Shown: positions 34,550 through 39,412 of the stretch, piece by piece
Layout: every line of letters starts with the position of its first letter
Position numbering within the stretch: position 1 is the first letter of the stretch
Assembly: GCA_964016885.1 (NCBI GenBank)
Contig: OZ024741.1
Span: 315,828,001 to 315,892,000 of the forward strand
Source: Eledone cirrhosa
Lineage: Eukaryota
DNA: 64,000 nt
Direction: 5' to 3'
Position numbers and translations under genes: made by a program
Notes under the pieces: model-generated
Seen by the model: the letters and a program-made list of their open reading frames with translations, nothing else
Databases searched by the model: none
Told to the model about the DNA's origin: nothing

Positions 34550-37500
34550 AATTAGATTCTCGATAAAAGCAAGGGAAGTAATCTACGCGTTTCATTCTTG
34601 TTAGAAATCATCAGGACTACATATCCAGTGCTTTTATCGAGAATGACACAGCTAGAGACTTATAGAATACTTAGCTGTGTACAGGAACTGGTTTGAAAGA
34701 GCGGTTGCCGGTCCGGCAGAAATTAGAAATTGGAATAAATGCTCTGAAATAGCGATATATATGTGAATATAGACATAGAATATTCGAAAATATTCTGTAT
34801 GTTTATAATAAACATTTTGAAGACCTAATCGCTATAGAATAGAATACGTCACGTATTACAATTAGATTCTCGATAAAAGCAAGGGAAGTAATCTACGCGT
34901 TTCATTCTTGTTAGAAATCATCAGGACTACATATCCAGTGCTTTTATCGAGAATGACACAGCTAGAGACTTATAGAATACTTAGCTGTGTACAGGAACTG
35001 GTTTGAAAGAGCGGTTGCCGGTCCGGCAGAAATTAGAAATTGGAATAAATGCTCTGAAATAGCGATATATATGTGAATATAGACATAGAATATTCTATAA
35101 GTCTCTAGCTGTGTCATTCTCGATAAAAGCACTGGATATGTAGTCCTGATGATTTCTAACAAGAATGAAACGCGTAGATTACTTCCCTTGCTTTTATCGA
35201 GAATCTAATTGTAATACGTGACGTATTCTATTCTATAGCGATTAGGTCTTCAAAATGTTTATTATAAACATACAGAATATTTTCGAATATTCTATGTCTA
35301 TATTCACATATATATCGCTATTTCAGAGCATTTATTCCAATTTCTAATTTCTGCCGGACCGGCAACCGCTCTTTCAAACCAGTTCCTGTACACAGCTAAG
35401 TATTCTATAAGTCTCTAGCTGTGTCATTCTCGATAAAAGCACTGGATATGTAGTCCTGATGATTTCTAACAAGAATGAAACGCGTAGATTACTTCCCTTG
35501 CTTTTATCGAGAATCTAATTGTAATACGTGACGTATTCTATTCTATAGCGATTAGGTCTTCAAAATGTTTATTATAAACATACAGAATATTTTCGAATAT
35601 TCTATGTCTATATTCACATATATATCGCTATTTCAGAGCATTTATTCCAATTTCTAATTTCTGCCGGACCGGCAACCGCTCTTTCAAACCAGTTCCTGTA
35701 CACAGCTAAGTATTCTATAAGTCTCTAGCTGTGTCATTCTCGATAAAAGCACTGGATATGTAGTCCTGATGATTTCTAACAAGAATGAAACGCGTAGATT
35801 ACTTCCCTTGCTTTTATCGAGAATCTAATTGTAATACGTGACGTATTCTATTCTATAGCGATTAGGTCTTCAAAATGTTTATTATAAACATACAGAATAT
35901 TTTCGAATATTCTATGTCTATATTCACATATATATCGCTATTTCAGAGCATTTATTCCAATTTCTAATTTCTGCCGGACCGGCAACCGCTCTTTCAAACC
36001 AGTTCCTGTACACAGCTAAGTATTCTATAAGTCTCTAGCTGTGTCATTCTCGATAAAAGCACTGGATATGTAGTCCTGATGAGTTCTAACAAGAATGAAA
36101 CGCGTAGATTACTTCCCTTGCTTTTATCGAGAATCTAATTGTAATACGTGACGTATTCTATTCTATAGCGATTAGGTCTTCAAAATGTTTATTATAAACA
36201 TACAGAGTATTTTCGAATATTCTATGTCTATATTCACATATATATCGCTATTTCAGAGCATTTATTCCAATTTCTAATTTCTGCCGGACCGGCAACCGCT
36301 CTTTCAAACCAGTTCCTGTACACAGCTAAGTATTCTATAAGTCTCTAGCTGTGTCATTCTCGATAAAAGCACTGGATATGTAGTCCTGATGAGTTCTAAC
36401 AAGAATGAAACGCGTAGATTACTTCCCTTGCTTTTATCGAGAATCTAATTGTAATACGTGACGTATTCTATTCTATAGCGATTAGGTCTTCAAAATGTTT
36501 ATTATAAACATACAGAATATTTTCGAATATTCTATGTCTATATTCACATATATATCGCTATTTCAGAGCATTCATTCCAATTTCTAATTTCTGCCGGACC
36601 GGCAACCGCTCTTTCAAACCAGTTCCTGTACACAGCTAAGTATTCTATAAGTCTCTAGCTGTGTCATTCTCGATAAAAGCACTGGATATGTAGTCCTGAT
36701 GAGTTCTAACAAGAATGAAACGCGTAGATTACTTCCCTTGCTTTTATCGAGAATCTAATTGTAATACGTGACGTATTCTATTCTATAGCGATTAGGTCTT
36801 CAAAATGTTTATTATAAACATACAGAATATTTTCGAATATTCTATGTCTATATTCACATATATATCGCTATTTCAGAGCATTCATTCCAATTTCTAATTT
36901 CTGCCGGACCGGCAACCGCTCTTTCAAACCAGTTCCTGTACACAGCTAAGTATTCTATAAGTCTCTAGCTGTGTCATTCTCGATAAAAGCACTGGATATG
37001 TAGTCCTGATGAGTTCTAACAAGAATGAAACGCGTAGATTACTTCCCTTGCTTTTATCGAGAATCTAATTGTAATACGTGACGTATTCTATTCTATAGCG
37101 ATTAGGTCTTCAAAATGTTTATTATAAACATACAGAATATTTTCGAATATTCTATGTCTATATTCACATATATATCGCTATTTCAGAGCATTCATTCCAA
37201 TTTCTAATTTCTGCCGGACCGGCAACCGCTCTTTCAAACCAGTTCCTGTACACAGCTAAGTATTCTATAAGTCTCTAGCTGTGTCATTCTCGATAAAAGC
37301 ACTGGATATGTAGTCCTGATGAGTTCTAACAAGAATGAAACGCGTAGATTACTTCCCTTGCTTTTATCGAGAATCTAATTGTAATACGTGATTACTTCCC
37401 TTGCTTTTATCGAGAATCTAATTGTAATACGTGACGTATTCTATTCTATAGCGATTAGGTCTTCAAAATGTTTATTATAAACATACAGAATATTTTCGAA

Positions 37501-39412
37501 TATTCTATGTCTATATTCACATATATATCGCTATTTCAGAGCATTCATTCCAATTTCTAATTTCTGCGGACCGGCAACCGCTCTTTCAAACCAGTTCCTG
37601 TACACAGCTAAGTATTCTATAAGTCTCTAGCTGTGTCATTCTCGATAAAAGCACTGGATATGTAGTCCTGATGAGTTCTAACAAGAATGAAACGCGTAGA
37701 TTACTTCCCTTGCTTTTATCGAGAATCTAATTGTAATACGTGACGTATTCTATTCTATAGCGATTAGGTCTTCAAAATGTTTATTATAAACATACAGAAT
37801 ATTTTCGAATATTCTATGTCTATATTCACATATATATCGCTATTTCAGAGCATTCATTCCAATTTCTAATTTCTGCCGGACCGGCAACCGCTCTTTCAAA
37901 CCAGTTCCTGTACACAGCTAAGTATTCTATAAGTCTCTAGCTGTGTCATTCTCGATAAAAGCACTGGATATGTAGTCCTGATGAGTTCTAACAAGAATGA
38001 AACGCGTAGATTACTTCCCTTGCTTTTATCGAGAATCTAATTGTAATACGTGACGTATTCTATTCTATAGCGATTAGGTCTTCAAAATGTTTATTATAAA
38101 CATACAGAATATTTTCGAATATTCTATGTCTATATTCACATATATATCGCTATTTCAGAGCATTCATTCCAATTTCTAATTTCTGCCGGACCGGCAACCG
38201 CTCTTTCAAACCAGTTCCTGTACACAGCTAAGTATTCTATAAGTCTCTAGCTGTGTCATTCTCGATAAAAGCACTGGATATGTAGTCCTGATGAGTTCTA
38301 ACAAGAATGAAACGCGTAGATTACTTCCCTTGCTTGTATCGAGAATCTAATTGTAATACGTGACGTATTCTATTCTATAGCGATTAGGTCTTCAAAATGT
38401 TTATTATAAACATACAGAATATTTTCGAATATTCTATGTCTATATTCACATATATATCGCTATTTCAGAGCATTCATTCCAATTTCTAATTTCTGCCGGA
38501 CCGGCAACCGCTCTTTCAAACCAGTTCCTGTACACAGCTAAGTATTCTATAAGTCTCTAGCTGTGTCATTCTCGATAAAAGCACTGGATATGTAGTCCTG
38601 ATGAGTTCTAACAAGAATGAAACGCGTAGATTACTTCCCTTGCTTTTATCGAGAATCTAATTGTAATACGTGACGTATTCTATTCTATAGCGATTAGGTC
38701 TTCAAAATGTTTATTATAAACATACAGAATATTTTCGAATATTCTATGTCTATATTCACATATATATCGCTATTTCAGAGCATTCATTCCAATTTCTAAT
38801 TTCTGCCGGACCGGCAACCGCTCTTTCAAACCAGTTCCTGTACACAGCTAAGTATTCTATAAGTCTCTAGCTGTGTCATTCTCGATAAAAGCACTGGATA
38901 TGTAGTCCTGATGAGTTCTAACAAGAATGAAACGCGTAGATTACTTCCCTTGCTTTTATCGAGAATCTAATTGTAATACGTGACGTATTCTATTCTATAG
39001 CGATTAGGTCTTCAAAATGTTTATTATAAACATACAGAATATTTTCGAATATTCTATGTCTATATTCACATATATATCGCTATTTCAGAGCATTCATTCC
39101 AATTTCTAATTTCTGCCGGACCGGCAACCGCTCTTTCAAACCAGTTCCTGTACACAGCTAAGTATTCTATAAGTCTCTAGCTGTGTCATTCTCGATAAAA
39201 GCACTGGATATGTAGTCCTGATGAGTTCTAACAAGAATGAAACGCGTAGATTACTTCCCTTGCTTTTATCGAGAATCTAATTGTAATACGTGACGTATTC
39301 TATTCTATAGCGATTAGGTCTTCAAAATGTTTATTATAAACATACAGAATATTTTCGAATATTCTATGTCTATATTCACATATATATCGCTATTTCAGAG
39401 CATTCATTCCAA
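34550..39412. mobile_element. 310-bp tandem array with one HHR per unit (retrozyme / PLE pLTR-like): 2 minus-strand and 14 plus-strand cores
   Basis: Marker gtctctagct at 35101, 35411, 35721 ... 39173; orientation flips at about 35091; runs into (TA)n on the right. Confidence 0.92.
35140..35182 (+). ncRNA. Type I hammerhead ribozyme (first plus-strand copy of the 310-bp unit)
   Basis: gtagtc-CTGATGA-(t/g)ttct(aaca)agaat-GAAA-cgcg-TA-gattac; distal 16-bp stem attctcgataaaagca/tgcttttatcgagaat. Confidence 0.85.

Follow-up and report, generated by a model that had tools for sequence, protein, structure and literature searches.

The 64,000-nt stretch of the Eledone cirrhosa genome analysed here (the window; contig OZ024741.1, within a 3.0-Gb genome) contains an array of 310-bp tandem units, each with a type I hammerhead ribozyme, which belongs to a young, dispersed and non-coding family of more than 1,000 insertions. 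Nearly every insertion of this family consists of two diverging multimeric arms that end at two different fixed sites of the unit and carry the same sequence variants. The dispersal, the two-arm layout, the two end sites, the random joints, the target duplications and the single variant per locus were all observed in the genomic DNA. The most probable explanation is that both cut ends of the target serve a Penelope-type reverse transcriptase as primers on one circular monomer of the retrozyme RNA, which it copies by rolling.

Two-armed insertions of a dispersed family

The size of the family was measured genome-wide as the number of exact matches to a 29-nt pattern of the ribozyme core, with the reversed pattern as control. 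The pattern was found 8,335 times and the control never, so that the hammerhead cores reported in an initial annotation of the window, made from the sequence alone, are not a product of chance. At 310 bp each, the matches correspond to roughly 2.6 Mb (a lower bound) of apparent satellite contributed to the genome by retrotransposition. Insertion ends were counted as the exact joint of unit position 165 with TATA (unit positions are numbered from the predicted cut site), which occurs 1,055 times genome-wide, again with no match for the control. The focal locus of the window was compared with 115 other non-redundant loci, of which 25 were selected by similarity, 12 by position among the core-pattern matches and the other 78 because they have the 165 end. 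The loci are about 1% diverged from one another, so that few variants separate them.

Both arms are present in 102 of these 115 loci, and 96 of the 115 are built of two simple diverging multimer arms, with one end at unit position 165-170 (the long end) and the other at 105-141 (the short end). The remainder comprises 13 one-armed loci, four of which are explained by an assembly gap or by the edge of the fetched sequence, three loci cut by that edge, two of complex structure and one diverged copy with another end. No locus with two alike ends was found among the 115, and all 96 typed complete loci pair one long with one short end. The same is true of the 37 loci picked independently of the end, where all 27 complete and typed two-armed loci are mixed. 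The long end lies exactly at 165 in 85 of 97 cases and the short end at 139 in 87 of 97, while the arms average 4.9 and 4.0 units in length and reach 19, with one arm exceeding 22.

The variants of the unit can be read as barcodes of the template. For the comparison of the arms 102 loci were aligned and one was dropped for having too few shared sites; both arms carry the same variants in 96 of the remaining 101, against a mean of 11.9 and a maximum of 22 in 3,000 shuffles. Two of the five mismatches (L095 and L111) are artefacts of indel placement and were kept in the count. Agreement between arms was found again in 51 of 54 loci of an independent second batch. Changes private to one unit are rare (101 in 278,637 calls, 0.04%), and rare multi-site variants occupy every unit of both arms, as in L036, where five changes are present in all of about 22 units. 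For a new variant to occupy all units in both arms, a bottleneck of one unit and then re-amplification would be needed, and rolling on a monomer circle would give both in one step. The initial annotation had suggested rolling reverse transcription; this idea and its retrozyme-like reading agree with more than 1,000 dispersed insertions, fixed ends, target duplications and the presence of one variant per locus in all units. Single-unit variants are mirrored between the arms in just 2 of 81-84 testable cases, and both arms have the polarity that priming from each target 3' end would give with sense RNA as template. RNA editing as a source of the variants is not claimed: distinct locus-wide variants include 9 A>G and 4 T>C, single-unit changes 10 A>G and 20 T>C, and with such small numbers wobble pairing in the helices fits equally well.

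The inner starts of the arms are distributed uniformly along the unit (p 0.32), and the two inner positions of a locus are unrelated to each other. In a test for stalling, inner 5' stops were not enriched at the cut site (7 of 200, 6.5 expected). Since, in addition, the bases flanking this site are intact in 1,922 of 1,925 cases, the enzyme seems to read through it, and these clean junctions favour circles over jumps between linear monomers. Microhomology of at least 2 bp is found in 36 of 70 filler-free joints (18% in simulations), and three inner joints use the 16-bp stem of the unit exactly.

Insertion flanks are mostly (TA)n, with rare AT-rich non-repeat sites such as those of L047 and L026. 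Of 14 loci in which an interrupted TA target is informative, 12 show the interruption at both ends, about 8 of them without ambiguity, which gives target duplications of about 11-15 bp; L047 shows a clean duplication of a non-TA target. From these duplications it follows that each two-armed insert is one event. The repeated interruptions further imply that the short end truly lies near 130, with letters of the target replacing the AUAUAU tract of the unit. The segment between the two end sites, of 26-40 nt, is carried at one end alone. The family thus combines the inverted arm and the one-sided tail of Penelope-like elements with a preference for (TA)n, the latter known from their Hydra, Naiad and Neptune clades. 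The published signature of endonuclease-containing (EN+) elements of this group is a truncated copy in inverted orientation together with (TA)n targets and a tail of 30-40 bp on one side (PMC8557442, PMC3846280). The anole Penelope protein, a predicted dimer, has been described to cut and extend both strands in vitro, two internal starts defining the tail (PMC11167929). The tail and (TA)n signature therefore points to the class of the mobilising enzyme.

The focal array and its hammerhead ribozyme

A scan of the window confirmed 16 cores with CTGATGA, GAAA and GTA boxes between 34550 and 39413. The focal locus is made of the following parts:

34350..34549, no strand: assembly gap of 200 N, truncating the inverted arm
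34550..35095, minus strand: inverted arm, 546 bp, 1.8 units, two cores (C3 at 34924 and 34614)
35091..35095, no strand: inner junction of the arms, 5-bp overlap TATTC, at unit position 109 (minus arm) and 225 (plus arm)
35091..39413, plus strand: plus arm, about 13.9 units, 14 cores (C3 at 35146 to 39218)
37347..37389, plus strand: 43-bp duplication of unit 1-43, in which the repeat starts again precisely where the cut is predicted; GA microhomology of 2 bp
37948..38036, plus strand: representative type I hammerhead, 16-bp stem 37948-37963 with 38021-38036
39378..39413, plus strand: tail segment (unit about 130-165), lying between the family's two fixed end sites
39414..40887, no strand: (TA)n-type microsatellite target beside the tail-bearing end

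The array is thus not a single head-to-tail run, since two cores (34614 and 34924) lie on the minus strand in the inverted arm and 14 on the plus strand; moreover, the plus arm ends at 39413 and not at 39412. It carries the tail segment and stops at unit position 165 in (TA)n, with cuts predicted before 35177, 35487 and so on to 39249. The inner end of the inverted arm corresponds to unit position 109, and its outer end, lost in the assembly gap, would by analogy with the other loci be expected near unit position 139. The 310-bp period holds for 12 of the 13 plus-strand core spacings. The remaining one, of 352 bp, results from the 43-bp duplication that starts at the cut site, together with a 1-bp deletion; in this single case a jump from a cleaved 5' end may have left its trace. 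The units are indeed of 310 bp with a ribozyme each, but the array that had been called near-homogeneous is a mosaic of two variants, 157T/287T in the inverted arm and the inner three to four plus units and 157C/287G in the outer plus units, with a stepwise switch between 35953 and 36573. Any of three causes could have produced it: a switch of template, gene conversion at the inverted and fragile centre, or a mosaic made in assembly. The initial annotation included neither the inverted arm nor this mosaic, nor the Penelope-like tail and (TA)n signature and the 2-bp helix III described below.

The unit has about 35% GC, and no open reading frame (ORF) of at least 150 aa was found inside the array. 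Dispersed, non-coding tandem units of about 150-450 bp with less than 50% GC and a type I hammerhead in each are what defines the metazoan retrozymes without long terminal repeats (non-LTR retrozymes). The canonical type I core (CUGANGA, GAAA and UH, with helices I-III around it) is present in all 16 copies. Helix I starts with the 6 bp GUAGUC/GAUUAC and continues through a 3x1 loop, 3 bp and a 2x2 loop into a perfect 16-bp stem in which unit positions 250-265 pair with 13-28; helix II has 4 bp plus a G.U or U.U at its base and is closed by loop II, AACA. The looped helix I, long stem and 4-nt loop II of the initial annotation are therefore borne out by the fold, and for the 106-nt ribozyme region the z score is -4.9, with none of 200 shuffles as good. 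Predicted pair probabilities are 0.9-1.0 for helix I and about 0.55 for helix II. In the representative copy, CUGAUGA lies at 37978 and is followed by the AACA loop, GAAA and ACGCGU, with the cut predicted between 38008 and 38009. An Rfam search of the window gave no match at the gathering score; for HH9 the match to the hammerhead reached 22 bits (E 0.0053), below its cut-off of 52.

The canonical G10.1-C11.1 pair is replaced by G.U in 11 of the 16 copies and, where position 10.1 is U rather than G, by U.U at the base of helix II in five; at other loci A-U is found, and U is the majority allele of the family at this position. A U.U at the same place is reported for axolotl HHR_Amex2, which cleaves (PMC7229834). 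Furthermore, helix III has just 2 bp (A-U and C-G), which lie inside the palindrome ACGCGU and have a pair probability of 0.0 in the monomer, while two ACGCGU copies are predicted to form an intermolecular 6-bp duplex of -9.5 kcal/mol. Short palindromic helices III that allow dimers are described for animal type I hammerheads (PMC4209133). A 2-bp palindromic helix III that is unpaired in the monomer corresponds to a hammerhead of the dimer type, and by this modelling implies cleavage that would depend on dimers formed with neighbouring copies.

The variants transmitted by the family also bear on the ribozyme. In unit 280-310, locus-wide variants amount to seven alleles at five positions (284, 287, 292, 294 and 295), which correspond to N7, 10.1 and loop II, all of them free sites of the hammerhead, whereas single-unit changes in the same stretch strike invariant core positions five times. 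Because the locus-wide variants are limited to free positions and the single-unit changes are not, the ribozyme, with its predicted self-cleavage, appears to matter to the family, whose transmitted variants spare the catalytic core.

Related repeats and a candidate helper

A 321-bp sister family, of which a remnant lies in the window, aligns over the whole 310-bp unit, keeps the tail region nearly unchanged and uses the same two end sites; its core is of the U3-A8 kind, its palindrome is a different one and its long stem is re-sequenced. Since the sister family conserves it, the tail region may be the element recognised by the enzyme. The window contains this sister remnant and two pieces of a Hydra-clade Penelope-like family:

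24189-24633: two-armed remnant of the older 321-bp sister family, copies about 96-97% identical
40888-41903, minus strand: 3'-end piece of the Hydra-clade Penelope-like family
50885-52917, plus strand: 5'-truncated copy of the Hydra-clade Penelope-like family

Elsewhere in the genome this Penelope-like family has intact 773-aa ORFs that are 98-99% identical, found by scoring 150 of 66,143 candidates, and tandem full copies at L079. The L079 ORF has RWK, DKT, a CxCX5C linker, CxxC and CxH around E and N, and GIY-YIG at its C-terminus. From these motifs, judged by eye against the description in PMC8557442, the family is assigned to the Hydra clade; a Pfam search of the ORF gave no hit, and PDB searches were blank or at chance level. 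The family seems to be very active. Nine of 17 examined loci of the family are two-armed with both ends at defined sites, and eight of these nine pair a long with a short end. The two end sites are about 115 nt apart and are used complementarily, and arms can exceed one period, so that Penelope machinery and the two-armed architecture are both present in this genome. For the partner enzyme, the unit was compared with the fetched loci and with the 3' regions of Penelope fragments in the fetched flanks (26 rows). No autonomous element with the tail of the unit was found among the fetched loci, these 3' regions and the search for the sister family, which is short of a genome-wide survey of families. 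The Hydra-clade family is a candidate helper.

Other repeats of the window touch the same subject. A second retrozyme family is represented at 46809-47728 (minus strand) by two identical 466-bp units with a type I hammerhead, an AACA loop II and a palindromic helix III, which end in (TA)n. Further hammerhead-like motifs with palindromic helix III lie at 55755 and 46110 (plus strand), and many other such hammerhead families are seen in the flanks of the fetched loci. At 42035-43239 a tandem repeat of about 552 bp (2.2 copies, 98% identity) lies between TA tracts, and at 45696-45824 an inverted repeat of about 130 bp, made of (AAC/TTG)n and (AAT/TTA)n around a short hairpin, lies inside a TA tract. 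From the ORF list, 2438-7815 (plus strand) is presumably a frameshifted non-LTR retrotransposon with endonuclease and reverse transcriptase, and 15851-20163 (plus strand) is what we take to be a fragmented Helitron-like Rep/helicase.

The 310-bp unit was also seen in 20 sequencing runs at 59-75% of words (17 organism codes, 16 studies), for which relatives, traces of host DNA and transfer are indistinguishable as source; none is labelled as RNA, the kind being mostly unspecified. Of four runs, X1 and X5 each gave one contig of 340 nt (310 + 30, as from a closed loop), X13 a 331-nt piece and X21 none; tandem DNA and a circle would take the same form.

Proposed two-ended rolling, its alternatives and known systems

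The course of an insertion may be pictured as follows. Arrays would be transcribed, neighbouring hammerheads would cut as dimers through the ACGCGU palindrome, and a host ligase would circularise the monomers. A Penelope-type reverse transcriptase with GIY-YIG endonuclease would then bind the conserved tail region and make a staggered cut in (TA)n DNA. One target end would start copying at 165-170 and the other would anneal to the AUAUAU tract at 130-139, after which both copies would go round one RNA template, probably a circular monomer, many times. Each copy would stop at random and the two would be joined; at the focal locus an additional template switch or gene conversion would have followed.

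Several points weigh against this scheme. RNA, cleavage and circle are all predicted from a family known here as genomic DNA. Nine one-armed loci have neither gap nor fetch edge to account for them, and the lengths of the two arms show a weak correlation (rho 0.26) and depart from a pure exponential (p 0.004). Mosaics of two variants are seen at the focal locus, L077 and L108: in L108 the two outer ends share one variant and the centre has the other, which speaks for conversion or a template switch, and L077 shows a similar split between centre and outside. In L049 the variants of the plus arm recur every seven units, and L088 and L056 each share a single-unit variant between the arms. Given the mosaics, this periodicity and these shared variants, multimer templates, switches or conversion do occur at times, and the focal duplication that restarts at the cut site indicates a linear cleaved end at least once. 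The tail of the Hydra-clade family is about 115 nt long and not 26-35 nt, and the unit shares no sequence with this 773-aa family or with the Penelope fragments in the fetched flanks. In the literature, one of nine Xenopus retrozyme dimers is reported to be cleaved in vitro (preprint 10.64898/2026.07.22.740005), and ribozyme cleavage is described as dispensable for insertion by the anole protein (PMC11167929).

Some of these points would be expected if the same two-ended Penelope priming took place on linear RNA, either by exact end-to-end jumps between cleaved monomers or on multimer transcripts of one homogeneous source array dominant in the RNA of a cell, so that two molecules would bring the same variant. 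This is the case for the duplication at the cut site, the three mosaics and the single-unit variants common to the arms in L088 and L056, and multimeric RNAs are reported for axolotl retrozymes (PMC7229834). We nevertheless regard linear templates as unlikely, as the cut-site junctions are clean, 5' stops are not enriched there and minority calls are so seldom mirrored between arms; furthermore, linear multimers alone would not be able to spread a new variant to 20-odd units, and arrays would shorten with each generation. A single priming event followed by fold-back self-priming, as proposed for Penelope inverted junctions (PMC3846280), would make the inverted arm from the first one and thereby explain the shared variants directly, and the microhomology and the three joints at the 16-bp stem fit hairpin priming. 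A fold-back copy, however, cannot outgrow its template, and of the 96 loci 45 have a long-ended arm that exceeds its partner by more than one unit and 27 a short-ended arm that does so. With either arm able to be the longer, simple fold-back is largely refuted, and the unrelated inner positions and the scarcity of mirrored single-unit variants (2 of 84) make this route quite improbable.

Expansion of short insertions by unequal crossing-over and gene conversion, as in an ordinary satellite with the ribozyme as a passive relic, is discussed as a route to tandem arrays in the available text of preprint 10.64898/2026.07.22.740005, and the seven-unit periodicity of L049 and the mosaics show some turnover at the DNA level. 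It is very hard to reconcile, though, with arrays that are already 20 or more units long in loci about 1% diverged, with inverted arms that share variants even where shorter than one unit, and with transmitted variants that spare the catalytic core, so we give it very little credit. An origin in the assembly, from palindromic chimeric reads or a collapsed repeat beside the gap, can be considered negligible: the focal inverted arm does abut the 200-N gap, and the copy number and mosaic of this locus come from the assembly alone, but the same layout recurs at 96 other loci, nearly all gap-free, with fixed ends, asymmetric joints and target duplications, and three other sequencing runs contain the unit at 99% or more.

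Two-ended rolling on a circular monomer may also extend beyond retrozymes. The chances appear evenly balanced that every Penelope-type insertion in the genome is a twin event, an obligatory double rolling-circle retrotransposition in which a dimeric enzyme, with its subunits placed singly at the two tail sites, primes from the two cut ends on a single circular RNA and both roll. If true, it would explain the tandem, inverted and tail structures of Penelope elements together with the origin of animal hammerhead satellites, and the 310-nt retrozyme would record this event a thousand times with a readable variant barcode. Two questions are touched, the return of animal retrozymes into DNA and the reason for the tandem copies, inverted arm and one-sided tail of Penelope insertions. 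For both, the family offers about 1,000 recent, protein-free insertions whose barcodes indicate a single template variant for the two arms and one use of each of the two start sites per event. Exact products are also predicted for a reaction in vitro of a (TA)n target with a 310-nt RNA, a system small enough to be reconstituted, and in this way the long-proposed copying step, rolling round a small and probably circular RNA, becomes testable.

Among known systems, the closest are the metazoan non-LTR retrozymes (newt satellite 2, axolotl Rtz331/353), described as likewise short, non-coding tandem units with less than 50% GC, each carrying a type I hammerhead whose palindromic helix III is weak, and with target duplications of more than 4 bp (PMC7229834). 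Expression and circles are shown for these retrozymes, whereas the 310-bp family is known from its DNA sequence, and reverse transcription of the circle into tandem copies by a Penelope-like enzyme is proposed in the same paper. Unlike in that account, nearly all loci of the present family consist of a diverging pair of arms whose fixed ends lie in (TA)n and complement each other; the words "inverted" and "microsatellite" are absent from the text of PMC7229834. The preprint of Li, Clavereau and Pollet (10.64898/2026.07.22.740005) reaches the same conclusion about the mobiliser, with typical units near 310-340 bp, but from co-occurrence and homology to pseudo-long terminal repeats (pLTR), mostly in vertebrates, while here it is drawn from insertion anatomy. 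No pLTR homology of the 310-bp unit to an autonomous element was found among the fetched loci and Penelope fragments compared, and the words "tail" and "head-to-head" are absent from the available text of the preprint.

The EN+ Penelope-like elements are described with an inverted arm, a one-sided tail, two start sites, AT-rich or (TA)n targets and duplications near 8-15 bp as well, and non-autonomous Chlamys elements with multicopy head-to-tail insertions are mentioned in the same literature (PMC8557442, PMC3846280, PMC11167929). In contrast to these elements, the 310-bp family has no ORF, both its arms form multimers that can reach 20 units or more, its tail and no-tail ends are strictly complementary and the same variant is found in both arms. 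Multimer arms, complementary ends and shared variants discriminate between mechanisms that the Penelope papers, in their available text, leave open.

In the twin priming of L1, both target ends prime on one RNA, which gives an inverted 5' part joined by microhomology; such inversion concerns a minority of L1 events, on linear poly(A) RNA, with little overlap between the two pieces. In the 310-bp family, on the contrary, inversion is the norm, the position of the second site does not vary and the whole unit is repeated many times in both arms. No publication on such two-armed, tail-complementary retrozyme arrays was found in the available text of the literature outside subscription journals and of the preprint. 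Non-LTR retrozymes, the proposal of copying from circle to tandem and the link to Penelope are already known (PMC7229834, PMC4209133, 10.64898/2026.07.22.740005); what is new is the anatomy of the insertions, that is, two-armed, tail-complementary arrays with one variant in both arms.

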